Source: Candidatus Moraniibacteriota bacterium (GTDB taxonomy: Bacteria > Patescibacteriota > Minisyncoccia > Moranbacterales > UBA1568). From it: a stretch of DNA of 64,000 nucleotides. The DNA lies in assembly GCA_963778555.1 (NCBI GenBank), contig CAVZUR010000005.1:97756-161755 (forward strand), read 5' to 3'. Below the pieces are notes generated by a model that was not told the DNA's origin, made no database searches, and was given only the letters and a program-made list of their open reading frames with translations. Positions 1-56,174 of this stretch are shown piece after piece. Made by a program: the position numbers and the translations under genes. Each line of letters opens with the position of its first letter. Position 1 is the first letter of the stretch.

Positions 1-1620
1 GTCACCAATGGTGCAGGGAGTATTACCATCGCTTCGACTCTGGGTGTGGCTGTCGACAGCGCTGAAATCACCGACAATGACCTGGACTTCATCGATTTCC
101 AGAATACGATGGATCTCGATGCCAACCTCACCCTGAATCAGACCACATTTACTTGGGACCCAGTCCTTCACCGGCACCACAACCAATGGCTACACCTACA
201 CCGCCGCCTCCCTCACCACGGGCTACGCTATGGACCTGAACGTCAACGGTGCCGTCCTCACCTCGGTGGCGCCATCAACATCGACGGCCGACTGGCGCGG
301 CAACTACCGGCTCCTTCAAGATTACGACCACGGGGCGGTGATGGCGGGGAGCTTCAAATCTCTGCCACCGCCACGATGCCTCTATATCAATCTCGGATGC
401 CGCGGCAATGACGACCGACTGGTGATCACCCCGCCGCCCTCGCACGGCTACCAGGACTGGTCAACGGCGACGCCACCTCACCCGGGTGCGCCATCGACAT
501 GACGGAACGACCGGAGTACTGCACTGCCGGATCCTCAAGATACGACGACTGGCGCCGCGAACCGGCACTGATCTCGGGACTGCCTCCGATATGCTCGCCC
601 CTCCAGAACGTCGCCTCTACCGTAGCTAGGCACGATGACGACGACGGGCGACTTGCTCACCCTTACTGCAAACTCGGCCACTAGTGCGACGGGACTTCTC
701 ACAATTGATGGCGGTAATGCGATGACAAGTGGTGGGGCCCTCAACATCACCGGCACTACCTATAATCATGGTGCTGATTTTGAAGAAGCCACTCTCGTGG
801 CTGTTGCTTATTCCGATACGACCTCTGGCGCTTTCAACACTACCACCTACGGCCTTGCGTCAACCCGACCATCAACATCACCACCGGTGCCGGCTCCAAA
901 GACAACAGTGCTATCTTCGTTCAACCATACCTCTGTACCGGTGCCACCCATTAATGTCTGTCCGGGACTCACGGATGCTCGGACATGGAACGACCAGGCC
1001 ATAAATGTTGGTTCTGGCTGGGATACGTATTCAACTCCTTTTCGCTCGATATCTCTGGTACTGGCGCCATCACCGGAGCGACGGGGATCACCTCGAGTGG
1101 CTCTATCACCTTTAGTGCCTTTACCAGTAATGGTGGTCCGCTCTACACCAACGGTTCGGGTGTCATCGCTCAAACCACTGCCGGGACAGCGACCCAAGTC
1201 CTCCATGGCGGTACTGCTCCAAGCTTCTCGGCCATTGTTGCTGCGGATATTACCGCTGACTCCCTCGACTTCACCGAATTCCAAGACACCCTCGATCTCG
1301 ATGCGGCCCTCACCCTGAACCAGACCACCAATACCTGGACCCAGTCCTTCACCGGCACCACCACCACCGGCTTCGCCTACACCGCCACTTCCCTCACCAC
1401 TGGCTCCGCCCTCAATGTCACTACCACCAATACCGCCACCGCCAACACCGCCCTCTCACCGGTTCAGTTCAATCTGACCAATGCTCAATCCACCCTCGCG
1501 AATACAGCTGGCATCAATGGAGTGCAAGTCAACTTCACCAACAACCCATCCATTGCGGGAAACACCGAAAATGCGGTTCGGATTCAGAACCAGGTCACGC
1601 GAACGTCACAGACAATGCGG
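1..1620 (+). pseudogene. Degenerate, multiply frameshifted 5' portion (or decayed paralogous copy) of the giant repetitive surface-protein gene; at least five frame switches between frames +1 and +2
   Basis: ORFs 46-411, 230-502, 635-1318 and 985-1818 alternate between two frames but all encode the same repeat modules seen in 1481-5629 (e.g. 'SLDF.EFQDTLDLDA.LTLNQTT.TW', 'MDLNVNGA.LTS', 'GAINIDG'). Alt-frame ORF 3082-3387 inside the clean gene gives the same junk peptide as 46-411, showing region 1-500 is a copy of ~3000-3500. Confidence 0.45.
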
Positions 1621-4600: not shown

Positions 4601-5629
4601 CGATTGAAGAAGAATATCATCCCGTTTGATAGTGTCCTGGATAATCTCGCCTCATTGACGCCCGTTACCTACAACTGGAGAAGTGATGAATTTCCGGATA
4701 AGCATTTCGGAGAAGCTGTGCAGCGCGGTCTGATTGCTCAGGATGTACAACGGGTATTTCCAGAGCTTGTGAAACAGGATGACGATGGCTATCTGCAGAT
4801 TGATTTTTCGAGCATTCAGTTCTATCTCTTGCAAGGTATCAAGGAAGAATACGCGTTGATTCAAGACCAATCAAACAGTATCGCCGCATTGTCTCTGGAG
4901 ACGACAGCTAGTATCACGACCTTGTCTGAACTCGAAGCAGCCGTTGAGGGACAGTTGATACTCGCGAGCGCGAACTTCACGACGCTGGCGGAAAAAGATG
5001 CCTTGATTGATACCAAACTGACAGAACATGATACGTACTTCGCCCGCGACCTGGCGCGGCTCGACGCAATTGATGCGCTGACGGCTCAGATGGCGCTCGA
5101 TCAGAACGCAGCCGCGGCCAACCTGGTGACGCTTCAGACTGAAATGACGGTTTTGACCGAGCAAGTCGGCACGCTCATGGAATTCTTCAACACGCTGGAC
5201 CTCGGCAATATGGTCGCGAAAGACGAGCTCGGCAATGTCGACCTGCTCGGCGGCACGCTCCGGGCCACTGCGCTCGCCACTGGCGGTATCACTATCGAAG
5301 TTGCCGATGAAGAGGCTCCGACCATTGGAACAGCGATGATCCTTCCAGTCGAGACGGACGCGGACGGCGATGGCAAAGATGATGAGACTGGTTCGGACGG
5401 CAAGAGTACGAGCGTCCTGACAAAAGCAATGATCCCGATGATCAACGGCTCACGCATCTTCACGAGCTTCAAGGGCAATCCGAACGCGTTTAGCTGGATC
5501 GAAAAGATCGTCACTGATGACGGGGAGTATGTCGGATTCAAGATCCGCGTCTCGGCGCCGGTCACGGAAAAGATCAAGGTCGACTGGTGGCTGATCGAGC
5601 AGAAGGATACGTTCTCGTCGAATCCATAA
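1481..5629 (+). CDS. Giant (>1380 aa) Thr/Gly/Ala-rich repetitive cell-surface protein (β-helix/fibre-like repeats) with peptidase S74-type intramolecular chaperone (auto-processing) domain and a coiled-coil-rich C-terminal region
   Basis: Uninterrupted 1382-aa ORF. Low-complexity T/G/A/S repeats. Tandem ~106-aa repeat (318 bp) at ~3153-3470 and 3471-3788. Motif block 'SSDERLKKNI...YNWRSDEF...GLIAQDVQRVFPELV...YLQIDFSSIQFYLLQGIKEEY' (~4590-4870) matches the tail-fibre/endosialidase C-terminal chaperone (Peptidase_S74) signature. Confidence 0.75.
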   Translation: MLNPPSRIQLASMECKSTSPTTHPLRETPKMRFGFRTRSRERHRQCGRSLLLLDNADTTATGTTIVTDAIAITNSGGSNFTNFLNTPTLDISAAGAITGATGITSSGNITFSSLTAGSVLFAGTSGILQQDNANFFWDDTNNRLGIGDTTPDGRFDFDLASTSTTAANEYGGNYTFTDTGVVTTGTDNTIGESVTVTRTGATGGTISTYGSLITATADTAGAGTSAIIGQYVTASGADTTYGFYANVTGTTSATSYGYLSNVTDATTGANTNYAEALQITDTGVVTAGTDITVGDYITVTRTGATGGTINTYGDEIIITTDNAGAGTSTATGELIDTGTAGTTNADTTYGLYVATEANAGTTAFGIYVDAGIQAGTEYAGIFMNGNVGVGDATPLSLFTVGNGDLFQVNSSGAIAAAAGVTSSGTITFSGLSTAGIVTNTAGGVLGTTTAVAATLGGTGFSSYAVGDLLYANTTTSLAKLADVAAGSCLISGGVGVAPTWGVCGAISADSLDFVDFQDTLDLDANLVLNQTTFTWDQSFTGTTTNGFTYTAASLTSGYAMDLNVNGAAVLTSGGALNIDGPTGAAAQAAGSLFKITTTGAVTGTDGSGNSSQISSATVTGTVSSISDAAVMTTTGDLLTLTANAATTTTGLQTINATGLTTGYAMDLNVNGAAVLTSGGAINIDGPTGAAAQASGALLNITTTGAVTGTAGIGNSLQVTSATVTGTVASITDAATMTTTGNLLTLTGNAATTATGLLTVNANGLTTGSAVNIASTATGLTTGGALQTITHSGSNAANIGSLLSLQNTGTASGNISLLIQHNATGTGNLAFRVNDIAGDTTPVVIDGTGQFGIGTAAPTTLFELYGTGSADAIATLTAPDATFDPILKYRTGATPAVQFSLGIDNTDSDKFKIFSGDGVGSGDEFVIDSNGVTTIANLNLGATTFDSDAGAIVWTDMPVTATTAAATVMSYSAQIDATNLMTMYSESNGTGGIQNTRVGILTTAPLDVLHVAGDVRVGTGTTGCVKDADATVLTGTCSSDERLKKNIIPFDSVLDNLASLTPVTYNWRSDEFPDKHFGEAVQRGLIAQDVQRVFPELVKQDDDGYLQIDFSSIQFYLLQGIKEEYALIQDQSNSIAALSLETTASITTLSELEAAVEGQLILASANFTTLAEKDALIDTKLTEHDTYFARDLARLDAIDALTAQMALDQNAAAANLVTLQTEMTVLTEQVGTLMEFFNTLDLGNMVAKDELGNVDLLGGTLRATALATGGITIEVADEEAPTIGTAMILPVETDADGDGKDDETGSDGKSTSVLTKAMIPMINGSRIFTSFKGNPNAFSWIEKIVTDDGEYVGFKIRVSAPVTEKIKVDWWLIEQKDTFSSNP
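4590..4870 (+). other. Peptidase S74 / intramolecular chaperone auto-processing domain within giant surface protein
   Basis: Conserved S74 chaperone-domain motifs (SDERLK, YNW, GLIAQDVQ, IDFSSIQFYLLQGIKE) read directly from the translation. Confidence 0.6.
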
Positions 5630-8807: not shown

Positions 8808-10229
8808 TCATGGGAACATATGCGGCAACGGATTCAGCTTCCACTCGGTGACACCTTTGGAAGCAGCGAATTCCTCCAAACGGTCGCTGTCGAAGGTGCC
8901 CTGGCACTCGAGGAGATAGAGGGGGAAAGCCTTCGGTACATAGACTTGGGCGATGTAGAACCCGAGCTTGGCTTGGATGGGATGCTTGGGGAAATAGGCA
9001 ATCGGGTAGTAGTCAGGGCCTCTTTTTCTCAGAACGGAGAGGCAGGCTTTCAGTTGGGTAGCATCATCGGTCGCTGAGGTGAGATCCTTTTGGCAGAGTT
9101 CCGCGTAGGAAACCTGCTTGCCGGAGAGGAACCACTGGAATTGCTGGATCTTTTCGGGACCGCGCCAGTAGAGTTGCCGTCCGATTTGACCGAGAACAGA
9201 AACGAATGGTTCGGATTGAGCATCCTTTTCCAGCTGCCGCTTATCACCCTCGTAATAAAACATTTCTGAGCTTATCACTATTTCTCTTAGAGAATGCCGT
9301 ATCGCTTGTTCGAATGTTGTCGCACTGGCGCCGCTCAGAACAATCTGAGGAGTCGCGCTCTTTGAGTTTAGGGCAGCAATAACGATAGACGGAATAGAGA
9401 GCGTTGTCACATCTACGATATGTAAAGACAGGCCGCATGATTCCAACGGGCGTATGATTTCCTGCATCTCCTCGGGGAGTGTTTCTACATCAATGATCCG
9501 CGGAGGAATCTGAGTGAGCCAGTGGACCAAGAATGCATCGCGCTCGATTGTTTCGAGGAGCCCACGCAGGAGAGCGCCATTTTTTGTGAAGTACCCGGCT
9601 GATCCGCTGGTCGTGGCGTTGACGAGAGGGGCTTCAGTGGAATAATTTTTGACGCACCATGAGGTCACTTGCCGCGGGATATACGTTTGTTCTTGCGTAA
9701 TGAGATTAATTCCACTCAGCCAATCCATCGGACGGGACGGGTCATGCTGGAGTTCCCGGTAATGCTCTCTTTGGATGTCCAAGAAGCGATGGTATTTCGG
9801 CGGGTAGAGTACTGGAAACTTTTTGAGCAGTTCGTTCGATGAAGCGATTAGTATGTCGGTATCCTTATTATACAAACCAGAAATGATGCGCTCAAGCATT
9901 TCGCCGATCGCTTTGGAAATAGCAGTCGCCCTATCTTTCGCAATCCCATGGCCGCTCACGCTCCGAAGATGTCCACGCACGACTACTTCTTTTTCCAGGG
10001 AATAAAAAAAGTATCCGGGAAAATGGAGACTTCTTTCTGCCATCGCATCGACGAGCCCTTTTTTTTTCAGATAAGTGTAAAGGGTTTCAGAGGCAGAGGT
10101 GACATCATCCGTGTGAGCAATATGCAGACTGTCCGCAAGCCAGGAATATCGGACGAATTGTTTTAATAAGCAAATCCGTATCCGATCGCCGATTCCCAGC
10201 GGTATTCGCCAGGGTCCGAACTTGTCCAT
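8808..10229 (-). CDS. YcaO-domain cyclodehydratase (TOMM/azoline-forming 'D' protein), paralogue 1
   Basis: 'TSGSAGYFTKNGALLRGLLETIERDAFLVHW' YcaO core. C-terminal Pro-rich 'NPLPHMFP' (PxPxP-type) motif typical of YcaO C-termini. ~474 aa from MDKFGPW. Confidence 0.8.
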   Translation of the reverse strand: MDKFGPWRIPLGIGDRIRICLLKQFVRYSWLADSLHIAHTDDVTSASETLYTYLKKKGLVDAMAERSLHFPGYFFYSLEKEVVVRGHLRSVSGHGIAKDRATAISKAIGEMLERIISGLYNKDTDILIASSNELLKKFPVLYPPKYHRFLDIQREHYRELQHDPSRPMDWLSGINLITQEQTYIPRQVTSWCVKNYSTEAPLVNATTSGSAGYFTKNGALLRGLLETIERDAFLVHWLTQIPPRIIDVETLPEEMQEIIRPLESCGLSLHIVDVTTLSIPSIVIAALNSKSATPQIVLSGASATTFEQAIRHSLREIVISSEMFYYEGDKRQLEKDAQSEPFVSVLGQIGRQLYWRGPEKIQQFQWFLSGKQVSYAELCQKDLTSATDDATQLKACLSVLRKRGPDYYPIAYFPKHPIQAKLGFYIAQVYVPKAFPLYLLECQGTFDSDRLEEFAASKGVTEWKLNPLPHMFP

Positions 10230-10349
10230 AATTGGTTTCTTTCGTTTGATTTCGTCTGGTCTAACCGAATGTACCAATATACAGAGTGATGTGGATAGTT
10301 TTACATGGAGATGTCATACAAGTACACCTACGTTTCTCCTGGTGTATTT

Positions 10350-12141: not shown

Positions 12142-12233
12142 TAAACCCTAGTATGCGGAGCGACTCCTCTTCAAAATTTTTCCATTGCTCGGGATACCTC
12201 TCCCTTAGGGAGTATGTGGAGGATATCGAGTCG

Positions 12234-13680
12234 ATGAGGCAGCATGGCCCGTGGCGGCTCCCGCTCGGCATCGGCGACCGGGTGCAGATTTTCTTTTTCT
12301 CCCTGATTCTGAAATACTCCTGGTTTTCTGATGCGTTGAGCATACGGTATCCCTATACGTGGAGCCCAGCGTATTCGGTGCTCATCGCCTATCTGAAAAG
12401 GTGTGGCGTAGTCGATGTGGTCCGGGAGCAGAATGCGAATCGCAGCGGATATTCCTTCTTCTCCCTTCAAAGGGGCATTTCCATAAATGAAAATATTCGG
12501 ACCATCGGCGGTCTGGGAGTCGACCAAGAGGTCTCGACGGCGTTTTCCAAAGCGATCGGCGAAATGCTTGAGCGCATCATTTCTGGTTTGTATAATAAGG
12601 ATACCGACATACTAATCGCTTCATCGAACGAACTGCTCAAAAAGTTTCCAGTACTCTACCCGCCGAAATACCATCGCTTCTTGGACATCCAAAGAGAGCA
12701 TTACCGGGAACTCCAGCATGACCCGTCCCGTCCGATGGATTGGCTGAGTGGAATTAATCTCATTACGCAAGAACAAACGTATATCCCGCGGCATATTGTT
12801 TCGTGGTTTGGGTTTGCCGAAGCGCGCGTGTTCAAAGACATTCTCCTGCATCCGACATCCAATGGCTGTGCCGGGTACTTTACGAAGACGGGTGCTGTTT
12901 TGCGAGGGCTGATCGAAGCAGTGCAACGGGACGCTTTTCTCGTCCATTGGCTCACGCAGATCGCCCCTGATCGCATCATCGAGGACACTCTGTCGCTAGA
13001 AATTCAGAAACAAGTCGGGGAATTCAAGGCGCGTGGAATCACCCTGCATATTCTCGATGTCACAGCTCTTTCTATCCCGTCCGTATCCATTGTGGCAATC
13101 AATGCTGAATCGGAAACTCCGCAGATTATTTTGAGCGGCGCAGAGCGGCGACATTTGAGCGGGCGGTGCAGGACGCACTCCGTGAAATGGTGCTGATGTC
13201 AGCGACTATGTTCTACCAAGGAGAAGCTAATAATAGAAAGAAAGAGCCTATGTTAGCAGAGCCGCAGCCATTCGTTTCTGATCTCAATGAGAAAACCAGG
13301 CAACTCTACTGGCGCGGTCCCGAAAAGATCCAGCAATTCCAGTGGTTCCTCTCCGGCAAGCAGGTTTCCTACGCGGAACTCTGCCAAAAGGATCTCACCT
13401 CAGCGACCGATGATGCTACCCAACTGAAAGCCTGCCTCTCCGTTCTGAGAAAAAGAGGCCCTGACTACTACCCGATTGCCTATTTCCCCAAGCATCCCAT
13501 CCAAGCCAAGCTCGGGTTCTACATCGCCCAAGTCTATGTACCGAAGGCTTTCCCCTCTATCTCCTCGAGTGCCAGGGCACCTTCGACAGCGACCGTTTGG
13601 AGGAATTCGCTGCTTCCAAAGGTGTCACCGAGTGGAAGCTGAATCCGTTGCCGCATATGTTTTCTTGATGAGCGATACAG
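12234..13680 (+). CDS. YcaO-domain cyclodehydratase paralogue 2, mosaic relative to paralogue 1, interrupted by two frameshifts (~13145 and C-homopolymer at ~13555-13560)
   Basis: ORFs 12153-13196 and 13166-13642 together align over full length to YcaO 1. Blocks 'KAIGEM...QTYIPR' and 'RQLYWRGPEKIQQ...VPKAFP' are identical in amino acid sequence (near-identical DNA, inverted), while the middle and N-terminal blocks are diverged. Copy 2 has CCCC where copy 1 has CCCCC at the shift site. Confidence 0.7.
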
Positions 13681-26400: not shown

Positions 26401-26414
26401 GGGGGGGGGGGGGG
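26401..26414. repeat. G14 homopolymeric tract in divergent promoter region (~75-90 bp upstream of 26490/26505 start)
   Basis: Read directly: ttc gggggggggggggg tagcc. Confidence 0.9.
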
Positions 26415-26504
26415 TAGCCTCGCATGATTTGAATCCTACTTGGTGTGGTCAACCGCCAATCATAGCCCATTTCAGTCTGATTTGGTAGGGTGAGGATAGT
26501 TAAT

Positions 26505-30310: not shown

Positions 30311-32911
30311 GTGGCATTACCGAATAACATAATTTATTGCGCTATGGAGTCGTCCGAAAAGCCATCGTTTGCACGTTTTGGGAGTCAGGCTAATTTTGCA
30401 TCGAGTGACCGGGTGAATGGGGGAGTGGTCCGAACCGAGACGCCGCTTCGAACCGGTACCGGGACAGCCGCACCGTCCCGCGTGCAGACCGCCAAGGTAT
30501 TTGATCTCATCATCACCAGCGTGCTCGTCGTGCTCTTCGCAGGTATCCCAGTCTTTTTTACGGGACTCACATTTCAAGGTATTGCATTTGAAAAACAGAT
30601 CTTCTTCTACTGCTGTCTTCTGATCGGGTTCGTCGCGTGGGTCTCGAAGGGGGTCATGACGGGTGAGATGCGTATCCGCCGGACGCCACTGGATATCCCC
30701 ATCGTTCTCTTTTGGCTGTTCTCGATCGCAGCGACGGTTTTCTCAGTTGACCGATGGCACAGTTTCTGGGGATTCTTCGGCGACCCATCGCGCGGTTTCA
30801 TCAGTCTGACGGCTTTGGTCCTGGCCTACTTCTTCATCATGAGCCATTTCACCGAACGGCGGAGGAATCTCATGCTCGGATCATTCCTCGTGTCGGGAGT
30901 ACTTGTTATCCTGTGGAGTTTCTTGGTAGTGATGAAACTTCGCTTTCTCCCCGCGAGCTGGGAATCGATGGCACCCTTGTCCTTGGTCGGTTCGATGTCG
31001 ACGCTGAGCCTCTTCTTGGCCCTCCTCATCCCGCTCATGGTGACTGCCTTGTTCCTCTTGTTTCGTGAAGGATCAGGGGCCTCATTGATGTTGCGTCGGA
31101 GCGGGGCAGCTGTCCTCGGTGTCGCTTTGCTGCTCGATTTATTCTTGCTCCTCGCGCTCTATCCGTTCGTGTCGTGGCCGGTCGTTCTGGGTGGATTGGG
31201 ATTTTTCCTCATCTACATCCTCGCGCAGATTGTCCGTCCAGCCAGCGAATTGACCTGGATGCCGATGGTGATTTTCGTCGTCGTCCTCGCCTTTCTCATG
31301 ATCGGCCAAAACCAGCTCGTCCGGGCGACGCTGCCAATCGAGGTGACCCCGAACATGAAATTGTCCTGGCAGATTGCCAAGGAAGCACTGAGCGCCAATT
31401 TCCTCTCTGGCACTGGCTTGGGGACATACGGCTATGATTTCTCACTCTTCCGTCCGCAGGAGTTCAATGGCAATGCGCTTTACACGCTGCGCTTCTATCA
31501 GGGGACGGGTCTCGTCTTTGAAGCGCTGTCGACCGTTGGCATTGTCGGAACTATTCTGATGCTCGTTATCTGGTTCTCCTTCTTGTCGGTCGGACTCTAT
31601 CTCCTCACCATGGATAAGGCCAAGAACAAAGTCGCTTCGCTCGGCTTGTGGTCGGTCGCGGTTATGCTGTTCATCTCCGGCTTCGTGTCGCCCATCAATT
31701 CCACGATTCTCATTCTGAGCGTCCTGCTCTCGGCACTTGCACTCGCGACCCTCTTGCAGGAAAGCGGATCCGAAGAGCGGCATTGGGAACTTTCGTTCCG
31801 GGCGACACCAAAGTTCGCACTGGCCCTAGCGTTCGTATTCATGGTGGTCTCCGCAGGCGTGGCATTCCTCTTCGTCTTCATGGGTAAGGTGTTTCTGGCC
31901 GATATTTCGGCGGGCCGGGCGTCAAGGCTTCCGGCATCAGTCGAGGAGACCGTTCCCAAGTACTTGAAAGCCATTCAGCTCTATCCGCAGGAGGGTCGGT
32001 ATTTCACCCGTGTTGCCCAAGAATACATGGCGATCGCCAATGCCGAGGGTGGCAAGAGCGCTGAAGAAAGAGATGTGAACAAGATCGCCTTCGCGGTCCG
32101 TGAAGGCGTGGCCGCTGGTGTCCGCGCCCGTGACCTGATGCCGAACGATGTGCTCGCGACGGAGGCCCTCGGATTGGTCTATGAGAACGCGAGTATTTAC
32201 GCGACAGACGCGTTGCCCAAGGCGGAAGAGATGTATGCGCGTGCCCTGGAACTCGAGCCGCAGAATCCGCTGTTCTCCATCAAGCTCGGTCAGATCAGCC
32301 GGCTCAACGCGGATGGGAAGCAGGATCCAACTGAGAAGGCAGCACTCTTTGCAGCGGCCAAAGCCTCTTTCGAGAAGGCCATTGAGCAGAAAGCTGATCT
32401 CGCGGTCGCGCATTACAATCTCGCAGTCGTCAATTCCCGATTGAAGGACTATGACGCGGCCATCCGCTCCACCTCTCAAGCGATCCGTCTCGCGCCGTCG
32501 AACCTCTCCTTCCGCTATAATCTCGGGCTGCTCTATCAGGAGCGCAATGGCGAGGGTGATCGCAACCAAGCCGAAGCACTGTTCAAGAACGTGCTTGAAG
32601 CTAATGACCGGCTCATCGATGTTCGGCTCTCGCTCGGTCTTCTGTACGAGTCCGAAAGCAAGCGCGACCTGGCGATGGAGCAGTACGAAAAGATCCTCGT
32701 TCTCATCCCAGAGGATGAAAAAGTTTCGGCCAATGTGAAGCAGACCAGGACTCAGATTACACAGATCATCGAGAATCTTCGCTCTGGCAAAGGTAATATC
32801 CCGGCGGGGAGCAGCCTCGCTGAACCGGGTCCGACCACGCCAACGACCGTCGCACCGTCCGTTCCGACGACGAGTCAAAGCGAGTCACTCCTGAATGGGC
32901 CGACGCGGTAG
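30311..32911 (+). CDS. Polytopic membrane protein (O-antigen ligase/Wzy-like) with C-terminal TPR-repeat domain
   Basis: About 12 predicted TM helices in first ~520 aa. C-terminal TPR repeats ('AIQLYPQEGRYFTRVAQEYM', 'AVAHYNLAVVNSRLKDYDAAI', 'LSFRYNLGLLYQERNGEGD'). Confidence 0.6.
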   Translation: MALPNNIIYCAMESSEKPSFARFGSQANFASSDRVNGGVVRTETPLRTGTGTAAPSRVQTAKVFDLIITSVLVVLFAGIPVFFTGLTFQGIAFEKQIFFYCCLLIGFVAWVSKGVMTGEMRIRRTPLDIPIVLFWLFSIAATVFSVDRWHSFWGFFGDPSRGFISLTALVLAYFFIMSHFTERRRNLMLGSFLVSGVLVILWSFLVVMKLRFLPASWESMAPLSLVGSMSTLSLFLALLIPLMVTALFLLFREGSGASLMLRRSGAAVLGVALLLDLFLLLALYPFVSWPVVLGGLGFFLIYILAQIVRPASELTWMPMVIFVVVLAFLMIGQNQLVRATLPIEVTPNMKLSWQIAKEALSANFLSGTGLGTYGYDFSLFRPQEFNGNALYTLRFYQGTGLVFEALSTVGIVGTILMLVIWFSFLSVGLYLLTMDKAKNKVASLGLWSVAVMLFISGFVSPINSTILILSVLLSALALATLLQESGSEERHWELSFRATPKFALALAFVFMVVSAGVAFLFVFMGKVFLADISAGRASRLPASVEETVPKYLKAIQLYPQEGRYFTRVAQEYMAIANAEGGKSAEERDVNKIAFAVREGVAAGVRARDLMPNDVLATEALGLVYENASIYATDALPKAEEMYARALELEPQNPLFSIKLGQISRLNADGKQDPTEKAALFAAAKASFEKAIEQKADLAVAHYNLAVVNSRLKDYDAAIRSTSQAIRLAPSNLSFRYNLGLLYQERNGEGDRNQAEALFKNVLEANDRLIDVRLSLGLLYESESKRDLAMEQYEKILVLIPEDEKVSANVKQTRTQITQIIENLRSGKGNIPAGSSLAEPGPTTPTTVAPSVPTTSQSESLLNGPTR

Positions 32912-33007
32912 AGTCAGGGAAATTACCGGTTGCAGTCTCTCGTCTGTTCGCTGCGAAGTGCAAAAATTTCCAGTTGTAGCAGCAGGTCAGCTCCGAAAAC
33001 AAATACC

Positions 33008-33352
33008 ATGCGCAATATGCATCGCTTCGGTTCAGCCGTTCTGAAACGTCTTACCTTTGTCTTTGTTGTGGTGGTGATGCTCGTACCATTCGCAGCCTTC
33101 GCGGGTGTGATAGATGAAGCACAGCCGCTCACTGTCGGTCTGACGAATATCCTTGACTTTTTATTGTCGATTGTGGGCGTGGTTGGTATAATTGGGCTAG
33201 TGATTGCGGGTATCCTGTATTTCTCCGCTGCCGGCGACATGCGACAACTCGCTCTCGCCAAAAAAGCAACGCTCGGATCAATCACTGGCATTATCATCGC
33301 ACTCGGCGGATATGCCCTCATTCGGACCATTGGCGTGCTCTTCGCTACTTGA
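33008..33352 (+). CDS. VirB2/TrbC-pilin-like small secreted double-TM protein, array member A
   Basis: Signal peptide, hydrophobic helix, 'GILYFSAAGDMRQLALAKKA' loop, second helix. Confidence 0.55.
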   Translation: MRNMHRFGSAVLKRLTFVFVVVVMLVPFAAFAGVIDEAQPLTVGLTNILDFLLSIVGVVGIIGLVIAGILYFSAAGDMRQLALAKKATLGSITGIIIALGGYALIRTIGVLFAT

Positions 33353-33416
33353 AACACACATAAACATTCGCCTCAGCTACTGAATGTGGCTGAGCACTGA
33401 AAGGAGGTGAGAGGTT

Positions 33417-33788
33417 ATGCAAAAATTCAAAAAAGTTGCCTTCGGTGCTCTGAACGGGCTGCTCTTGCTCGCGCCGGCTGTGGCTCATGGTCAGTCTTGG
33501 GATGCTTCTATCGGCGCCGCACAGGCCAATTCGGGTCTGCCGACGGGATCGATATCGGGTATCATCATAGCGACCCTGACCTGGCTCCTGGGAATTCTCG
33601 GCTTTCTCGCGATGATTGGGTTTATCATCTCGGGTATTCTCTATCTCACCGCCGCTGGCAATGAGACGCAGATCGAAAAGGCCAAGAACGCTATGACATA
33701 CTCCATCATTGGTGTCATCGTAGCGCTCATGGGCTTTGTGATCATTCAAGCGGTTGATCTGTGGTTGGGGACGTCAACGACTTTCTAG
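33417..33788 (+). CDS. VirB2/TrbC-pilin-like protein, array member B
   Basis: 'MQKFKKVAFGALNGLLLLAPAVAHGQ' signal peptide; '...FIISGILYLTAAGNETQIEKAKNAMTYSIIGVIVALMGFVIIQAV'. Strong SD 'aaaggaggtgagaggtt' before ATG. Confidence 0.6.
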   Translation: MQKFKKVAFGALNGLLLLAPAVAHGQSWDASIGAAQANSGLPTGSISGIIIATLTWLLGILGFLAMIGFIISGILYLTAAGNETQIEKAKNAMTYSIIGVIVALMGFVIIQAVDLWLGTSTTF

Positions 33789-33794
33789 TTCGTC

Positions 33795-33850
33795 CTTTCC
33801 GATCGAAAAGGGAACACGACTCGCATCAGCGGGTCGTTTTCTTCGGACAG
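33795..33850 (+). terminator. Hairpin plus T-run after array member B (repeated after member C at ~34435-34490)
   Basis: 'gaacacgactcgcatcagcgggtcgttttcttc'; identical element downstream of member C. Confidence 0.4.
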
Positions 33851-34056
33851 AAACTGATTAGTCTCATGTCTTGAGTGTCTCAGACTGGGTAATGAAAAAG
33901 AATGTTGACAGTTGTGTTCAGATGTTTTAGACAGGCTTTTTAAGAAGGGATATACTAGAAGCATGTAAAAGTGCGTTGATTGTCTGGTAACGAAATATCT
34001 ATTCACATTCGCCTCAGTCACGTCGGTGACTGAGCACTGAAAGGAGGTGAGAGGTT

Positions 34057-34428
34057 ATGCAAAAATTCAAAAAAGTTGCCTTCGGTGCTCTGAACGGGCT
34101 GCTCTTGCTCGCGCCGGCTGTGGCTCATGGCCAAGCGTGGGACGCTTCTATCGGCGCCGCGCAGGCCAACTCGGGTCTTCCGACGGGATCGATATCGGGT
34201 ATCATTATATCGACCCTAACGTGGCTCCTGGGAATTCTCGGCTTTCTCGCGATGATTGCATTCATCATCGCGGGTATTCTCTATCTCACCGCGGCTGGTG
34301 ACGAGTCCCAGATCGAAAAGGCCAAGACGGCCATGACATACTCCATCATTGGTGTCATCGTGGCGCTCATGGGCTTTATCATCATTCAAGCGGTTGATCT
34401 GTGGTTGGGGACGTCAACGACTTTCTAG
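34057..34428 (+). CDS. VirB2/TrbC-pilin-like protein, array member C (recent tandem duplicate of B)
   Basis: About 90% identical to B including 5' UTR/SD and 3' terminator. Confidence 0.6.
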   Translation: MQKFKKVAFGALNGLLLLAPAVAHGQAWDASIGAAQANSGLPTGSISGIIISTLTWLLGILGFLAMIAFIIAGILYLTAAGDESQIEKAKTAMTYSIIGVIVALMGFIIIQAVDLWLGTSTTF

Positions 34429-34672
34429 TTCGTCCTTTCCGATTCGATTAGGGAACACGACTCGCATCAGCGGGTCGTTTTCTTTTGGGATGGGGCCAGT
34501 TTGCCCTTCGAGCACGAACGAGATTGACGGTGAAAAAAACCATTGACAGGATCGCTAACATGCTTTGGACAGGCGCAGTAGGAGGGGGTATACCACTACA
34601 CCAATATATTGGTGTAGTGGTATACTGAAACCATACAAAACTGGGTAAATTGTCTAACTCGCTGCGTGGAGT

Positions 34673-35053
34673 ATGTTTATAGAGAAAAATACAGGAACCG
34701 TGTTTATGACAGCCACGTTCGTGGCGCTAGTTGTGTTCGCTGCTTTCGGATTGACCTCGGAAGTCTGGGCTCAGTGGAATATGGCCGACCCGAACCTTGC
34801 CGACTCGGGCCTTTCGGATTCGACGGCCTATGACATCCTCGTGACGCTCATGAATTGGCTTCTCGCCATATTGGGCTTCATCGCCATTATCGCCTTTGTG
34901 ATCTCCGGCATGCAGTACTTGACGGCGGCGGGAGACGAGGGGTTGGCGGAGCGGGCCAAGAGCAATTTGAAATACTCCATCATCGGCATCATCGTCGCGC
35001 TCTCGGGCTATATTATCATCGTGACGATCAGTGACGTGTTCCTGTCGGCCTAA
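34673..35053 (+). CDS. VirB2/TrbC-pilin-like protein, array member D
   Basis: '...FVISGMQYLTAAGDEGLAERAKSNLKYSIIGIIVALSGYIII'. Confidence 0.55.
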   Translation: MFIEKNTGTVFMTATFVALVVFAAFGLTSEVWAQWNMADPNLADSGLSDSTAYDILVTLMNWLLAILGFIAIIAFVISGMQYLTAAGDEGLAERAKSNLKYSIIGIIVALSGYIIIVTISDVFLSA

Positions 35054-35093
35054 ACCTAACAGTGGGAGGCCAGTATCAAAGGCAGGATCAGTT

Positions 35094-35528
35094 ATGAGCG
35101 GCCGGAACAGTATGCACACAAAAACGAACACCCCCCAGCGAATACAGGTTTTTCCGAAGATTTTTTATTTCGGGGTTTTTCTTTTGTTTGGGGTATTGTT
35201 TCTCGGACCAACAGAGCTCTTTGCACAAACGTGTCCGGCTGGATTTAGTGCGGAGAATGGCACGTGTTGGCCTACCAATACAGGTCTCTCAGAGGCGTCG
35301 CTCTATGATATTATCGTGGCGGTCATGAACTGGATTCTCGCGATTGTCGGTTTCATCGCTATCATTGCCTTCACCATCTCAGGTGTCCAATATATGACCG
35401 CGGCCGGGGATGATTCGCAGATTGAAACCGCCAAGCGCAACATGAAGTATTCCGTCGTCGGTGTTATCGTCGCGCTTTCGGGCTATATCGTCATCGCGAC
35501 AATCGATAATTTGTTCCTGTCAGCCTAA
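35094..35528 (+). CDS. VirB2/TrbC-pilin-like protein, array member E, with short Cys-containing ectodomain
   Basis: 'QTCPAGFSAENGTCWP' then '...FTISGVQYMTAAGDDSQIETAKRNMKYSVVGVIVALSGYIVI'. Confidence 0.55.
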   Translation: MSGRNSMHTKTNTPQRIQVFPKIFYFGVFLLFGVLFLGPTELFAQTCPAGFSAENGTCWPTNTGLSEASLYDIIVAVMNWILAIVGFIAIIAFTISGVQYMTAAGDDSQIETAKRNMKYSVVGVIVALSGYIVIATIDNLFLSA

Positions 35529-35590
35529 GTGGCTCAGGTGTCAGTGCACCCAGAGAAAGTCTCAAAAAAACAGCCAGTCACTCGGATAGC

Positions 35591-36400
35591 ATGAACACAA
35601 AAAGAAACCGGCGACCCCATACTGAAATCTTCCCAAAAATGATTGTTTTTGGTGTTGTTCTGTTGTTCGGAGCATTGTTTCTCACGCCTTCTCCGGCGTC
35701 GGCCCAGAGCTGCGTCGGGACCTGTGTGCCGAACTCTATCGGCTGCCAGGGTACGCTGATTCCGGGTCCCGGTACTTGCCCAGATCCGGCGAATGAAGAA
35801 TGTTGTTGGGGCGGTGCGATCCCTGATCCAGTACCGACTGGGGGTGGTCCAGCAGCTTCAGCTGGTGGCGGACCGGTCTCTATGACGTCTACAGACGTCT
35901 CCAATCCGCTCAGCTTCACCACAGTGGATACGCTTTTGACGAACGTTCTCGGTTTCGTCCAGAGCTTCATGGTCATCCTCTCCCTCATCTTCATCGTCAT
36001 CGGCGCAATCATGTATATCACCTCGGGTGGGGACTCGGGCCGTATCGAGACGGCCAAGAAGGCCATCGCCGCGGCTCTCATCGGCCTGGCCATCGGTATT
36101 GCGGCCCCGGCCTTCCTGAAAGAGATCGCCCAGATCCTCGGCTGGACCGATGTCCCGAGCAATGTGAGCGGTGCCAAGTCCCTCCTCGAAATCGCCGGCG
36201 GCGTTCTGAACTTCCTCCTCTCTGTCGTCGGCATCATCGCCCTCATCATGCTCGTCGTCGGTGCCCTCATGTATCTGACCGCGGCCGGGGATGAAGATCG
36301 GATCGATACCGGCAAGAAGATCGTGAAGTACTCCATTATCGGCATTACGATTGCTTTGGCCGCCATGGTCTTGGTGCGGCAAGTCGCGGGGTTTTTCTAA
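35591..36400 (+). CDS. Pilin-like array member F: Cys-rich ectodomain plus two tandem pilin-like double-TM modules
   Basis: 'CVGTCVPNSIGCQGTLIPGPGTCPDPANEECCWGG'. Module 1 'GAIMYITSGGDSGRIETAKKAIAAALIGLAIG'; module 2 'GALMYLTAAGDEDRIDTGKKIVKYSIIGITIALAAM'. Confidence 0.55.
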   Translation: MNTKRNRRPHTEIFPKMIVFGVVLLFGALFLTPSPASAQSCVGTCVPNSIGCQGTLIPGPGTCPDPANEECCWGGAIPDPVPTGGGPAASAGGGPVSMTSTDVSNPLSFTTVDTLLTNVLGFVQSFMVILSLIFIVIGAIMYITSGGDSGRIETAKKAIAAALIGLAIGIAAPAFLKEIAQILGWTDVPSNVSGAKSLLEIAGGVLNFLLSVVGIIALIMLVVGALMYLTAAGDEDRIDTGKKIVKYSIIGITIALAAMVLVRQVAGFF

Positions 36401-36414
36401 ACTGATACGAGGCT

Positions 36415-38241
36415 ATGCCATTTCGAAATCTTTTGGTCATCATCTTCCTCTCCGCTGTCTTCGGACTGTTCATTCCGGGCTTGACCCAGGCGCAGACCTG
36501 CCAGGAAAATGGCGGTGCCTGCCGTCCGGGCTGGGTATCGGGTTGCGCTAACCCAGAGACGCCTGTGTCTGGAACTTGTCCGGCTGCCCCTTCAAATGCT
36601 CCTCCGGGTGGTGTGCTCATCTGTTGCCGCGCGAGCCAGTCAGGAGTGATGAATGCACGGATAGCGGAGGAGTCTGTCGAAGCGCTTACTATTCGACGGA
36701 GTTTCCGAACGCTGAATGGCCCGCTCAACCTGCCTGTGGATATAGCACTGCAGAAGTCACATCATCGGCACGCTGCAGCAACTTTTTTGCGCTCTGTTGC
36801 GTCCCGCCGCCGAATCTCGGCGCCAGCTGCAATGGTGGATCCGGCACTTGTCTGTCGGCTGGGAGCTGTGCGAGTCCGGTCGCGTCGGCTGACTGCGTTG
36901 GGGGGGCTGTGTGCTGTCCACCGCTCTCGCCGAATGTTGGAACTTCGTGCGGTGGTACCGCCACGTGCCAGTTGACCTGTAGCGGCACACCGTCATCCTC
37001 GCCAACATGCGTCGGTGGAACCATGTGTTGTACACCGACTCCGCCCCCTCCTCCCCCCCGCCGCCGCCGGTGGACAATGTTGGAACTGCCTGTGGTGGGA
37101 CGGCCACCTGCCAATTTGCTTCGAGTTGCGCTGGGACGCAAGCTCCCTCCGCCATTTGCACGGGATCGACCGTGTGCTGCACGCCGACTCCCCACCGCCA
37201 GGCGCGAATGTCGGGACCGCCGTGCGTGGGGGATACTGACCGGCGGTGCGGGTGTCTGCGAATTTACGTCGCTCTGCAGCAATACGGAAACCTCGGGGAC
37301 CTGCACAGGGGGGACGGAATGCTGTATCTTTTCTGCTCCGCCTCCGCCGCCGCCTGTCTCGACCTGCGCTTCAGTCGGTGGTACCTGCGCGCGGGCCGTC
37401 GATGGCTGTCCGGATGGCGAGGTGCCTGGCGGCACGTGCAGCGCCAATCAGCTCTGCTGTGCAGCGGCTTCCTGTGCTGCCATCGGCGGTACGTGTACCC
37501 GGATCGATGCGGGTTGTAGTGCTGGTGAGCGGACGGGGATCTGCAGCGCGGGCCAGATGTGCTGCGCGCCGACGAGTACGGCTGTCTGTGAACCGCTCGG
37601 TACCTGTGTGCCTGCCGGGGGCTGCCTCACTGGGGAAGTGCCAGGCGGCATCCTGTGCCGATCCCGGCCGGATGTGTTGCGCTGTGTCCGCACCGGCTGG
37701 TGGTGGGCCGCTCAATGTTCCCGGGAGCGCGCTCAATCTCCCCAATCCACTCCTCTTCAATGACTTCAATGGGCTTTTCATCGCAGCTTTGAGTTCGCTC
37801 CAGAATCTCCTCGTCATCCTCTCCCTCATCTTCATCGTCATCGGCGCAATCATGTATATCACCTCGGGTGGGGACTCGGGCCGTATCGAGACGGCCAAGA
37901 AGGCCATCGCCGCAGCTTTGATCGGCCTGGCCATCGGTATCGCGGCTCCGGCCTTCCTGAAAGAGATCGCTCAGATCCTCGGCTGGAGCGATGTCCCGAG
38001 CAATGTGAGCGGTGCCAAGTCCCTCCTCGAGATCGCCGGCGGCGTTCTGAACTTCCTCCTCTCTGTCGTCGGCATCATCGCCCTCATCATGCTCGTCGTC
38101 GGTGCCCTCATGTATCTGACCGCGGCCGGGGATGAAGATCGGATCGATACCGGCAAGAAGATCGTGAAGTACTCTATTATCGGCATTACGATTGCTTTGG
38201 CCGCCATGGTCTTGGTGCGGCAGGTTGCGGGGTTTTTCTAG
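36415..38241 (+). CDS. Pilin-like array member G: long Cys/Pro-rich repetitive ectodomain (CxxGGxC...GEVPGGxC...CCA repeats, poly-Pro linkers) fused to the same double pilin-like C-terminal module as F; reading frame switches ≥4 times (36640, 37060, 37200, 37650)
   Basis: ORFs 36415-36975, 36576-37763, 37007-37519 and 37246-38241 each carry the same Cys-repeat pattern in different frames. Last ~426 bp (37815-38241) nearly identical to 35975-36400. Confidence 0.5.
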
Positions 38242-38299
38242 CGCAAGTGCATATTTGAGAAATTGAGAAAACCACCACACCAATCATTCTTCACCGTGT

Positions 38300-38557
38300 A
38301 TGTTTTATGTTTATGTGTTGAAGAGTCAGAAAGATGGTAAAGGATACATCGGTTCCACGAATGATCTCAAAAGAAGACTTTCCGAACATCAAGGAGGACA
38401 AGTGACTTCGACAAAGTCTCGCCGTCCTTTCAAACTAGTCTATTACGAGGCTTATTCAGCCGAGACTGATGCCAGGAAACGGGAGGAAAATCTCAAGTTA
38501 AAGAGTCGCGCCTATGCCCAACTACTGAAAAGGATTTCAGAAAGTCTCAAAGTATGA
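38300..38557 (+). CDS. GIY-YIG nuclease-family small protein
   Basis: 'MFYVYVLKSQKDGKGYIGSTNDLKRRLSEHQ' is a canonical GIY-YIG motif. Confidence 0.8.
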   Translation: MFYVYVLKSQKDGKGYIGSTNDLKRRLSEHQGGQVTSTKSRRPFKLVYYEAYSAETDARKREENLKLKSRAYAQLLKRISESLKV

Positions 38558-38640
38558 TTGGTGTGGTGGAAAAGAAAAAACGGGCTTCACATTGCTGTGT
38601 TGCCCGTTTTGATCGCGTTCCGCGCGCTGGCGAAAGTGAC

Positions 38641-40107
38641 CTAAGTGCACTGCTCGATCATGACCTGGAGACTGCCGGGTCCTTGGCGGTGGAGATCCGG
38701 CGCCGCGTAGATGTTTCGGCCCAGGGTGATGGTCAACGGCTGCGACGTCTCGATGCGGCCCTGTTCGCCGATGAAGAGGGGCTTGTATCCCCACTCCTTG
38801 GCGAGGACGAAGAAGCGTCCATAGGGCTGCGTCTCCCGGGCGATTACCTCGCTCGGGAGCGGGGCTCCCGGTACTGGTTGCGGTCTCCAGTATCCGCCGC
38901 CATAGCCGGTAAAGGCTTGCCCTTTGTTGTAGCAGGTATTGATCCTGCCCAGGGCATCCATGTCGCAGGAGTAGTCCAGTGACATGTCGGTTTTTTTCAG
39001 GAAGTGCTGCTGCACTGTCCCACTCACCTGGAATTTGTATTTCCCAGGCGGCAATGGCGCATCGAGTGTCAACCGGCCATTGGTCGACTCACTTGGCACA
39101 TAGTCCACTTCCAGATAGGGGGAGCAGACCGAGGCCATGGCGACGGGTGTCGCCGGAGCCGGTGCAGTTGCCTGCCCCATGCTCGTTGACGCCGTACTCG
39201 GTGCCGTCGTGACCGTGGTCGCGTCAGCACCGATCTTGGCGCATTCTTCGAACTCGGCCGCGGTCGGGATGACCGGGGCGATCTTCTTGGCTGGGTCGCC
39301 CTTAGCTTTTGCCTCGAGCTTCGCGTAGCAAGCATTGCGCTCGCCTTGCTTGGCGGTTTCGGCTGCCATTTCGGCTTGGACTCGGGCGGCTGCGGTGGCC
39401 GCTTCGGCACGCCGCTTGGCATCCGTCGACCGATCATCGATCGACTTCAGGCCCAGCTTGTGCTGAGTCCAGGCGACCAGATCCTTCTGATATTCGCGAA
39501 TACCAGGAGTCCAGCTGCCCAGGGTCCAGACGATCACAGCGATCAGGATAGTCGCCGAAAAGTTCAGGACGAACTTGCCGCTCCGATTGGTGTACATGCA
39601 CCAGACGGTGAGGAACACCGATGCCGCGAGCATGACGATGGCACCGACGGGATTGCTCCCGATGGGCCAGAGCGCCAGGACGAAGAAGGGGAGTGAACCA
39701 TAGAGCGCCACCATTGCGGCGAATCGGCCGAGCGCGTAGATCCACGTTTCTGCCCACTTCTTGCCGTCCGTTACGCTCAGTCCAACTTCGCCCCCCGGTT
39801 GCGCAGCGACGAAAGCCACACCCGCTGGTCCGAAGATGTTCAGCGGCGTCAGAATGAACGCCACGGCGGTGAGCAGGAACGCCATTGCGGCGATCCAGTT
39901 GAGGTGGCGGAGAGAGTCGGGGAACCAGACGTTCACCACGGCGCCCACGATGAGGGCGGCGAAGTACGCGAGGACGAAGAGTCGGGTGACCCTGAACCAG
40001 CCACGGTGGAAAGAGAACCACCGACCAGTCCAGTCCGCATTCACGAGAGGACCGAAGTACTCCAAGGGTGAAACATTGGGAACAGGGGGAACAGGTTGCG
40101 TTGCCAT
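38641..40107 (-). CDS. Hypothetical polytopic membrane protein with Ala/Pro-rich linker and C-terminal extracytoplasmic domain
   Basis: 488-aa ORF. About 6 TM helices in N-terminal 230 aa. Low-complexity 'KRRAEAATAAARVQAEMAAETAK'. Confidence 0.5.
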   Translation of the reverse strand: MATQPVPPVPNVSPLEYFGPLVNADWTGRWFSFHRGWFRVTRLFVLAYFAALIVGAVVNVWFPDSLRHLNWIAAMAFLLTAVAFILTPLNIFGPAGVAFVAAQPGGEVGLSVTDGKKWAETWIYALGRFAAMVALYGSLPFFVLALWPIGSNPVGAIVMLAASVFLTVWCMYTNRSGKFVLNFSATILIAVIVWTLGSWTPGIREYQKDLVAWTQHKLGLKSIDDRSTDAKRRAEAATAAARVQAEMAAETAKQGERNACYAKLEAKAKGDPAKKIAPVIPTAAEFEECAKIGADATTVTTAPSTASTSMGQATAPAPATPVAMASVCSPYLEVDYVPSESTNGRLTLDAPLPPGKYKFQVSGTVQQHFLKKTDMSLDYSCDMDALGRINTCYNKGQAFTGYGGGYWRPQPVPGAPLPSEVIARETQPYGRFFVLAKEWGYKPLFIGEQGRIETSQPLTITLGRNIYAAPDLHRQGPGSLQVMIEQCT

Positions 40108-40120
40108 TTCTGACTACTCC

Positions 40121-41155
40121 TTAGTTGAACTTGGCGGCGACACCGAGGATGATGACGCCGACCACGATTGTGATGACGAAAATCCTCGTTAACCGCTTGT
40201 CTTTCTCTTCGGCGGTCATCCGGCCGGCTTCGCGCGCCTCATGACGTTTGATGGCCGGGTCTTGATGCTGCTTCACGAGTGCGAGGAGAAAGGCTTGGAA
40301 CGCATTGCGGCGTCCTTGCTTTTCTGTCTCAGGTGCGGCGTCGATCGCTGCCAGGAGCTCTTGAGCCGGACGGCCCGCGAGTATTCTGGCGACGTTTTCC
40401 TTACCGATGGCGACTTCCGCCAGTCCGATATGGATTCCCGTTTCGTGATCGTTGCACCACCCTACCACCTTGGTCCCGAATGCACTGGCCTTGTCCGCGG
40501 CCGCTTTAGCAGCCACCGCAGCCTTGTCCTCGAGGTTGTCGAGGATATGGAGGCTTTGCAGGGTCTCGGCGACGGCCTTGATCCGCTTCGCTTCCGCGCC
40601 CTTGCCGCTCGTGACGAGCCAGGTGAGGGCGCTGATGACTTGTGCGCCCTTCTGATTCAGCTTTTCGTCCCACTCCGAGACGATCGGCGTTTCGCGCGTC
40701 CTCTGGCCAGTCGGATCTTTGGGATCCTTGTGCTGGGTGAAGCCGGTCGTCTTTTTGCGCTTGATCGTCGTCACTTCGACGGCGACTGTTTGCATGAGGC
40801 GTTTGATGGCCCCAGGCGGCAGCGCAGCGACGACTTTGGGAAAGATGTGCGCTTCAGTAGCTGCGACCTTGTACTCGAGAGCACAAGTGCCATCGGCCAT
40901 ATAGAGTGTCGAGAGCCACGCGAGAAGCGCGTAGAGCTCGCCTTCCTGTTCCCGGTTCTCACTGATGACCTGGGGGCCGGGCGGAGAAGACGGAATCTTT
41001 GCCGATTCGGCTTTTACGTTTTTGCTTCCAGCAATCCATCGGTAGAGCTTCATGGCGTACTCGGCCATATCGCCCCCAGAGAGGAGGCCGCTCTCCATAA
41101 TCGCTTTGACATACTTCGTGGGCATGATTGAGTCCCTTTCTGATCTTTCGATCAA
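40121..41155 (-). CDS. Hypothetical protein with C-terminal tail anchor (TM)
   Basis: 344 aa. C-terminal 'IFVITIVVGVIILGVAAKFN'. Confidence 0.45.
   Translation of the reverse strand: MIERSERDSIMPTKYVKAIMESGLLSGGDMAEYAMKLYRWIAGSKNVKAESAKIPSSPPGPQVISENREQEGELYALLAWLSTLYMADGTCALEYKVAATEAHIFPKVVAALPPGAIKRLMQTVAVEVTTIKRKKTTGFTQHKDPKDPTGQRTRETPIVSEWDEKLNQKGAQVISALTWLVTSGKGAEAKRIKAVAETLQSLHILDNLEDKAAVAAKAAADKASAFGTKVVGWCNDHETGIHIGLAEVAIGKENVARILAGRPAQELLAAIDAAPETEKQGRRNAFQAFLLALVKQHQDPAIKRHEAREAGRMTAEEKDKRLTRIFVITIVVGVIILGVAAKFN

Positions 41156-54931: not shown

Positions 54932-56174
<1,243 letters not shown>

Follow-up and report, generated by a model that had tools for sequence, protein, structure and literature searches.

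Quinonero-Coronel et al. (2025, PMC12102498) described arrays of two to 11 VirB2 genes in 383 assemblies of the Patescibacteria, the candidate phyla radiation (CPR). Identity within an array averaged 25%, with a maximum of 54%, and of 1948 assemblies only 1135 had virB4 close to the pilin gene. A VirB2-like array is essential for epibiotic growth in a Saccharibacterium (Wang et al. 2023, as cited in PMC12857230). Few gene sets have been shown to be essential for an epibiotic CPR bacterium; VirB2-like pilin arrays belong to these few, and what they do is not settled (PMC12857230, PMC12102498). Here we describe an array of this already known kind in a stretch of 64,000 nucleotides (nt), the window, from the genome of a Candidatus Moraniibacteriota bacterium (GenBank assembly GCA_963778555.1, contig CAVZUR010000005.1, positions 97,756 to 161,755; all positions below count from the first letter of the window). 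Seven plus-strand genes, A to G, lie at 32930-38241, directly after a tetratricopeptide repeat (TPR) gene of 866 amino acids (aa), and our subject is the last two, F and G. As judged from family matches and gene order, F and G are the last two members of a conserved seven-gene VirB2/TrbC-like array on the chromosome of this member of the Patescibacteria, and the array is syntenic in many relatives.

The locus resembles the described arrays in that seven PF18895/PF04956 genes, which encode Sec signal peptides, stand in tandem in the genome of a CPR bacterium; all seven match PF18895 (T4SS_pilin, VirB2/TrbC-like) above its curated cut-off of 26.6. It differs from them in holding two near-identical pairs (the F/G cassette, 99% at the amino-acid level, and B/C, 92% at the DNA level) and in having two members that combine a tandem double VirB2 module with Cys-rich heads. 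The traits for which we found no description are the tandem VirB2 module, the modular beta-defensin-like heads and the recent gene conversion between paralogues; in the searchable literature no account of Cys-rich heads or of a tandem double VirB2 module on CPR pilins was found. What the locus adds to the known arrays is threefold: members in which the VirB2 module is duplicated and the modular Cys-rich heads differ greatly in length, evidence of gene-conversion exchange between array paralogues, and a possible bacterial beta-defensin-like fold. The explanation that we hold, with moderate confidence, is that of a conserved array with homologous modular heads, a recent conversion between F and G, and breaks in the reading frame of G that are errors or very recent inactivation, with no switching mechanism. 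The frame-hopping of G is most probably a sequence-quality problem that touches several genes of the contig, and it should not be taken as biology without reads.

Gene F (35591-36400, plus strand, 269 aa) is intact. It consists of a signal peptide (35591-35704), one module with six Cys (35711-35806), an F-type neck and a tandem VirB2-like cassette. An earlier reading of this DNA, made from the sequence only (the sequence-only reading), had called F and G paralogues with a common double pilin-like 3' module, and this description holds, as PF18895 gives two stretches in the cassette of each (56.9 bits for F, 59.9 bits for the C-terminal part of G). The AlphaFold2 (AF2) model of F has a predicted local distance difference test (pLDDT) score of 80 overall and comprises a small beta module (residues 41-74, pLDDT 91-94), then a disordered Gly/Pro linker, and four long helices (112-144, 149-183, 198-230 and 235-268, pLDDT 81-93) that are predicted to form two hairpins. 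By this prediction F has the signal peptide and the two-helix hydrophobic hairpin that are traits of T4SS_pilin/VirB2 proteins. A Foldseek search with the whole F model returned generic helical bundles only, with no specific match, and a profile search of PDB sequences with F found no relative. Orthologues of F with a single module (P0013-P0015) are 59-62% identical to it.

After a signal peptide, gene G (36415-38241, plus strand) encodes nine 6-Cys modules joined by Pro-rich linkers, then a G-type neck and a second copy of the cassette, and as assembled it contains six indels of ±1 base. When these are repaired, the nine modules follow the pattern C-x(5-10)-C-x(3-19)-C-x(8-12)-C-x(5-14)-CC. 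The single module of F has the spacing 3, 6, 10, 7, which is that of the membrane-proximal module in G orthologues, as can be seen by setting F ('CVGTCVPNSIGC') beside orthologue modules ('CTGSCVPAGGSC', 'CTGSCVPVGFGC' and 'CSGTCIPALIGC'). The two Cys-rich ectodomains had been taken to be unrelated. Their Cys patterns argue instead that the heads of F and G are homologous and built of one module type, present in one copy in F and nine in G. Copy number varies widely in the family: of 128 homologues, 72 have no module, 39 have one, 12 have two, two have five, and single proteins have three, seven and 11.

We propose that F and G would both be exported by a Sec-type signal peptide; their N-termini look like Sec-type signal peptides ending ASA/QS and TQA/QT. 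After the signal peptide, each protein would present an extracellular, disulfide-rich head of one (F) or nine (G) 6-Cys modules, a conserved 'NPLxF' neck and C-terminal tandem helical hairpins. The hairpins may anchor the protein in the membrane, or they may enter a VirB2-type filament together with the single-module pilins A-E, and the heads may be displayed outward as binding modules.

The most striking likeness between F and G lies at their 3' ends. Copy 1 of the cassette (in F, 35972-36399, encoding two helical hairpins) and copy 2 (in G, 37813-38240), both on the plus strand and offset by 1841 nt, differ at 11 of 428 nt without gaps, an identity of 97.4% that confirms the near-identity reported in the sequence-only reading. 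The identity ends on the 3' side at the stop codons (TAA vs TAG) and upstream at the first transmembrane (hydrophobic) helix. Of the 11 differences, a single one alters the protein (T/S). Comparison across relatives, which that reading had advised, was informative, as the F and G cassettes of ten other genomes are 65-81% identical at the DNA level and G is intact in nine relatives. The near-identity is therefore not a maintained feature of the locus. Furthermore, the shared sequence is of the F type in five of five genomes compared, matching the F copy and the G copy at 73 vs 68, 66 vs 65, 78 vs 66, 75 vs 66 and 76 vs 71%, and a G-type neck ('NPLLFNDFNGLF') is retained just upstream of the cassette of G. 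The simplest reading, given the identity of 97.4% here against 65-81% elsewhere and the F-type affinity in all five genomes, is a recent, lineage-specific gene conversion that would have placed F-type sequence over the cassette that G had of its own, from the first helix to the stop codon, with copy 1 as the probable donor and copy 2 as the probable recipient.

A near-identity of this kind could also be an artefact of assembly or polishing, in which the reads of one paralogue overwrite the other. The contig clearly has indel problems, and a pair of YcaO genes in the window is likewise 100% identical over a tract of 257 nt that is bordered by a frameshift. However, the two cassettes still differ at 11 sites, nearly all of them silent, and the boundaries of the tract are clean, falling at the first helix and the stop codon; true copies of about 70% identity should leave many amino-acid changes among the residual differences. 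We therefore consider such an artefact improbable. A collapsed repeat, which the sequence-only reading had named as what could undo its account of the duplication, does not apply, since both copies of the cassette are present with their 11 differing sites.

The same reading had proposed that the shared cassette is a substrate for recombinational head-swapping, analogous to pilin antigenic variation. The Neisseria pilE/pilS system is indeed alike in having paralogous surface-filament genes with a common conserved segment and differing exposed parts, a direct repeat of 428 bp with 97% identity is well suited to recombination, and arrays of VirB2 paralogues have been proposed to give surface variation (PMC12102498). 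However, F and G each have their own start codon, with a GAGG motif just upstream of the ATG of G, their signal peptides differ, and homology is confined to the 3' side of the heads. A system of the pilE/pilS type requires silent donor copies and homology on both sides of the variable part; here, partial copies that are silent and lack a promoter are absent, the homology is one-sided, and it is the conserved part rather than the variable part that is copied. A crossover between the direct repeats would delete the head of G and leave an F-only arrangement, as is found in one relative (L005), and the divergence of the cassettes in the ten other genomes also speaks against such a mechanism. Finally, pilE/pilS encode type IV pilin, whereas F and G are VirB2/TrbC-like: neither has the features of a type IV pilin (class III signal peptide, N-methylation motif), and Pfam gives PF18895 only. 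Head-swapping is, in our judgement, extremely improbable, and gene conversion from F into G remains the reading on which we proceed.

The head of G poses a separate problem, because the gene cannot be read in one frame. From its own ATG, G as assembled reaches a stop at 36975 after 186 aa, and inspection at the codon level gives six single-base events with a net shift of zero. The sequence-only reading had counted at least four changes of frame; that G is unreadable in a single frame stands, and the count becomes six, the jump near 37200 being three events. At the first (36646-36648, frame 1 to 3) one base is missing between 'CCRASQSGV' and 'DECTDSGG', where orthologues are continuous as 'CCQAPQDVNDCTNAGG' and the high-scoring segment pairs (HSPs) of tblastn searches change frame at the same point. 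At the second (37053-37059, frame 3 to 2) one base is missing from a C7 run in a poly-Pro linker; C8 would restore the frame, and the module that follows is intact only in frame 2. At the third (37190-37193, frame 2 to 1) one base is missing from a C4 run, where C5 would restore 'TPTPPPPGANVGTA'.

The other three events are insertions. One extra base lies between GCC and TGC at 37222 (frame 1 to 2); sister repeats are without it and read AAT GTT GGA ACT xCx TGx, and its removal gives 'NVGTACVGD', like the 'NVGTTCTGD' and 'NTGAPCVGD' of the orthologue P0001. Another extra base falls in GACCGGC at 37241 (frame 2 to 3). The last is in GGCATCCTGT at 37650-37653 (frame 3 to 1), and its repair gives 'GEVPGGxCADPGRMCC', parallel to 'GEVPGGTCSANQLCC'; the tblastn HSPs change frame here too. 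All six events lie on the plus strand.

We accept this six-event path because three lines of evidence agree. A DNA repeat inside G (36933-36973 and 37076-37116, 83% identical) has its copies 143 nt apart, which is not a multiple of three, and the copies stand in different frames. In tblastn searches of the window with five intact orthologues, both termini align in frame 1 and the middle in frame 3. Lastly, the repaired stretch 37207-37260 reads 'NVGTACVGDTDGGAGVCEF', which is mirrored by 'NVGTTCTGDNVGTPGVCQL' in P0001. Repaired G has no in-frame stop codon and all of its 54 Cys are in place. The codon-usage frame plot was blind to the head of G because its composition is atypical.

Searches with repaired G found orthologues that are intact and 627-723 aa long (P0001, 691 aa; P0002, 723 aa; P0003, 627 aa), and G-type genes are single open reading frames (ORFs) in nine relatives (L001, L002, L003, L006, L007, L013, L018, L019 and L021). 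When the whole of repaired G was the query, low-complexity words swamped the search, which gave nine matches and missed the window's own fragments; the N-terminal part of G as query retrieved only the window's own 186-aa fragment, and no closer relative or independent assembly was found. The relatives are distant, with NusA 83-89% identical in the nearest ones. Some G orthologues (L002, 1637-3808; L003, 10001-11884; L006, 6486-8537) also have a domain of about 90 aa, once or twice, between their Cys modules, with the pattern 'CxIPxGxSxCxxxVSWS...SSWDGSxC', possibly Ig-like, which is absent from G of the window.

The sequence-only reading had left three origins for the breaks: contingency-type variation, decay or error. 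The evidence points to decay or error and away from contingency. The likeness to simple-sequence contingency loci consists of one break in a C7 run within the coding region of a surface protein, and for that site alone slippage would be plausible. In a contingency locus one tract sets the frame. G differs in having six independent ±1 events with no single controlling tract; only one of the six falls in a run of at least seven bases and the other five in runs of one to four, so that no single slippage could restore the frame. In addition, the nine orthologues are intact, and similar indels occur in genes of the window that are not surface genes. It is thus very improbable that G is a phase-variable contingency gene that switches by slippage at G/C runs. 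Programmed frameshifting was rejected, as the six sites have no common motif and stop codons follow in the old frames.

We think it fairly probable that the breaks are consensus errors, including perhaps poor consensus in strain-variable or badly polished stretches. That all six events are ±1, that no stop remains after repair, that 54 of 54 Cys are in place and that the cassette differences are almost all silent together argue for error or very recent damage. Further support for error comes from at least three other genes of the window that show similar ±1 indels. The gene for a glycoside hydrolase of family 1 (GH1; 55068-56174, minus strand) is split near 55215 by a single-base break into two pieces, each of which matches the Pfam model; the sequence has an A3 run at a point where A2 would put the gene back in frame. 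The second of two YcaO genes (12153-13662, plus strand) has two frameshifts and aligns with its intact, inverted paralogue (8808-10277, minus strand) in three frames. The pair has tracts of 306 nt (92%), 257 nt (100%) and 120 nt (97%) in common, and one of the breaks, a C4 run against C5 in the paralogue, sits at the end of the 257-nt tract, which is otherwise 100% identical. The third is a giant repeat protein with a Peptidase_S74 (endosialidase chaperone) domain (1-5629, plus strand), in which the first 1650 nt or so need many 1-nt repairs and 1650-5629 is one intact ORF.

The serious alternative, which we regard as unlikely, is that G is a genuine and recently inactivated pseudogene, redundant beside F and on its way to being lost, with its 3' end kept F-like by gene conversion from the working copy. 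In its favour, the indels are concentrated in one gene with 16 kb downstream clean, homopolymers elsewhere keep the frame even when long, breaks occur as well in the second YcaO gene and in the 5' part of the giant gene, both with paralogous sequence nearby, and L005, whose F-type cassette is the closest to that of the window, has F and no G. However, repair leaves G free of stop codons and with all 54 Cys retained, and each of the six events is a single base. If the cassette of G were drifting, more than half of the 11 differences would be expected to alter an amino acid, and by our own binomial estimate the probability of one or none is about 0.002. GH1 also carries a ±1 indel and has no paralogue in the window. 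By a similar estimate, six indels in the time of at most one amino-acid change in the cassette would require an unusually high indel rate.

Several observations nevertheless weigh against the explanation as a whole. Runs of A7-A9, T7-T9 and G8 are in frame within intact genes elsewhere in the window, so six errors in 1 kb are not accounted for by a plain model of homopolymer error. The indels are strongly clustered, falling in few genes as they do in real pseudogenes, and paralogous sequence lies near three of the four genes affected, a pattern that the decay of redundant copies would predict. The absence of G from L005 means that G can be lost. The only public copy of the sequence is one NCBI/ENA contig of 228,612 bp. 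The proteins called on it (P0129, 186 aa; P0011, 189 aa; P0010, 172 aa) correspond exactly to parts of broken G and of F, with the same breaks, and public gene calls are therefore no independent check of them. On the side of function, no match to the VirB4, VirD4 or VirB6 families was found among the larger ORFs of the window that were scanned, and a role of F and G as anchor or filament subunit and in binding is only what we infer from the build of the proteins.

The Cys-rich modules themselves have a wider resemblance. Modules 3-9 of G, with spacings 6,5,8,5 / 5,3,9,5 / 5,5,9,5 / 10,5,8,5 / 6,6,9,5 / 6,6,8,5 / 5,5,9,6, show the canonical Cys spacing of beta-defensins, and every one ends in CC. 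A search for disulfide domains on the corrected protein had been recommended in the sequence-only reading: module 7 (37365-37460, plus strand, frame 3) matches Defensin_beta (E 0.0036) and Defensin_beta_2 (E 0.0038) below cut-off, and a module of the homologue P0116 passes both cut-offs, with the best scores of all (31.9 and 26.0 bits). Across 76 modules searched with Pfam, Defensin_beta_2 was matched by 16 and Defensin_beta by 10. Within the window, module 7 reaches only 17.7 and 18.1 bits against the defensin cut-offs of 21 and 22.2, and the other nine of the ten modules have no match to these families.

The AF2 model of module 7, made with an alignment of 74 modules, has a pLDDT of 88.9 and three strands, a model that the Cys pattern could bias. 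All of the top 13 PDB structures that Foldseek returned for it are defensins (10 beta-defensins and three of the alpha-defensin Crp4/cryptdin-4), at E-values of 0.4-2.5 that are not significant for so short a domain. Human beta-defensin 1 superposes on the model with a template modelling (TM) score of 0.68-0.73 and a root-mean-square deviation of 1.4-1.5 A over 34 columns, again at Foldseek E-values that are not significant. Read from its sequence, the modelled module is acidic and not cationic. A profile of the module searched against 1.84 billion representatives gave 58 matches, in which pilin fusions are mixed with unrelated Cys-rich proteins (a CLIP-domain protein, a granulin-like protein, a lysozyme/NlpC fusion), so the Cys pattern is part of what drives the profile. 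We conclude that the 6-Cys module may be beta-defensin-like in its Cys spacing and predicted fold, and that common descent and convergence are both possible. One further protein with about 15 similar 6-Cys modules, P0143 (1179 aa), continues with Phage_lysozyme2 and NlpC/P60 domains, which hints that such modules can accompany cell-wall hydrolases.

With beta-defensins the modules of the window share the six Cys, in a spacing near C-x6-C-x4-C-x9-C-x6-CC, and may share the three-stranded sheet predicted for module 7. The differences are that modules of this type are bacterial and are strung together, in up to 11 copies among the homologues, to form the head of a membrane protein. Tandem or embedded forms of the beta-defensin fold exist in the tick carboxypeptidase inhibitor and in arthropod CLIP domains. 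In the searchable literature, the defensins reported from bacteria are cis-defensins only (PMC11561630). We tentatively advance the idea, which we would not call probable, that Moranbacteria display strings of one to 11 beta-defensin-fold modules on a duplicated VirB2-like subunit, in the membrane or in a filament, as adhesive heads that contact other cells. If this were true, bacteria would be using a fold that has until now been assigned to animals (trans-defensins), and the architecture would be new among the pilin arrays on which epibiotic CPR bacteria depend.

The remaining members of the array are simpler. Genes A-E are single-module pilins of 123-140 aa that score 26.8-44.5 bits with PF18895, all on the plus strand: A (32930-33352; PF04956 TrbC 31.4 bits, PF18895 26.8 bits), B (33417-33788; 37.9 bits), C (34057-34428; 38.1 bits), D (34673-35053; 43.0 bits) and E (35112-35528; 44.5 bits). 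B and C are tandem duplicates within a 640-bp tandem duplication (33386-33850 and 34026-34490, 92% identical) that also places a terminator-like hairpin after each gene, and they differ by 0.20 at synonymous sites (pS) and 0.033 at nonsynonymous sites (pN). The signal-peptide region of E is like that of F, as the repeat families D8 and D14 join 35109-35204 with 35588-35683 at 74-81%.

Conservation extends beyond the array. The TPR gene upstream (30311-32911, plus strand; Pfam TPR families) is a conserved neighbour that holds the same position in L001, L003 and L005, with orthologues 74-82% identical. In L001, L002 and L003 the TPR gene is followed by small pilins, an F-like gene (205-214 aa) and a G-like gene, after which come two genes on the minus strand and then NusA, pyrophosphatase and trigger factor. 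When species-representative genomes were scanned, 53 related loci were obtained, mainly titled Candidatus Moraniibacteriota or Moranbacteria; many third-party annotation (TPA) records bear the label 'uncultured Bdellovibrionales'. The window is chromosomal, with a G+C content of 52% and intact housekeeping genes (ValRS, NusA, trigger factor, RecG, an ABC transporter). Rfam found tRNAs only in the window and none near F or G, the ORFs on the minus strand beneath F and G gave no family matches, and scans for tandem repeats, promoters and terminators added nothing decisive.

Downstream of the array, on the minus strand at 38641-41155, are two conserved hypothetical genes (488 and 344 aa). Neither has a Pfam match, and both keep their position in relatives, with a fast divergence in sequence (26-57% identity). 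Between G and the next gene lies a small GIY-YIG ORF (38300-38557, 85 aa), within a segment (38272-38569) flanked by a 20-nt inverted repeat that is 95% complementary. This ORF is not at the corresponding position in L002 and L005, and it could be a small mobile element. Elsewhere in the window, a G14 homopolymer (26401-26414) stands in the intergenic gap ahead of the gene at 26490.

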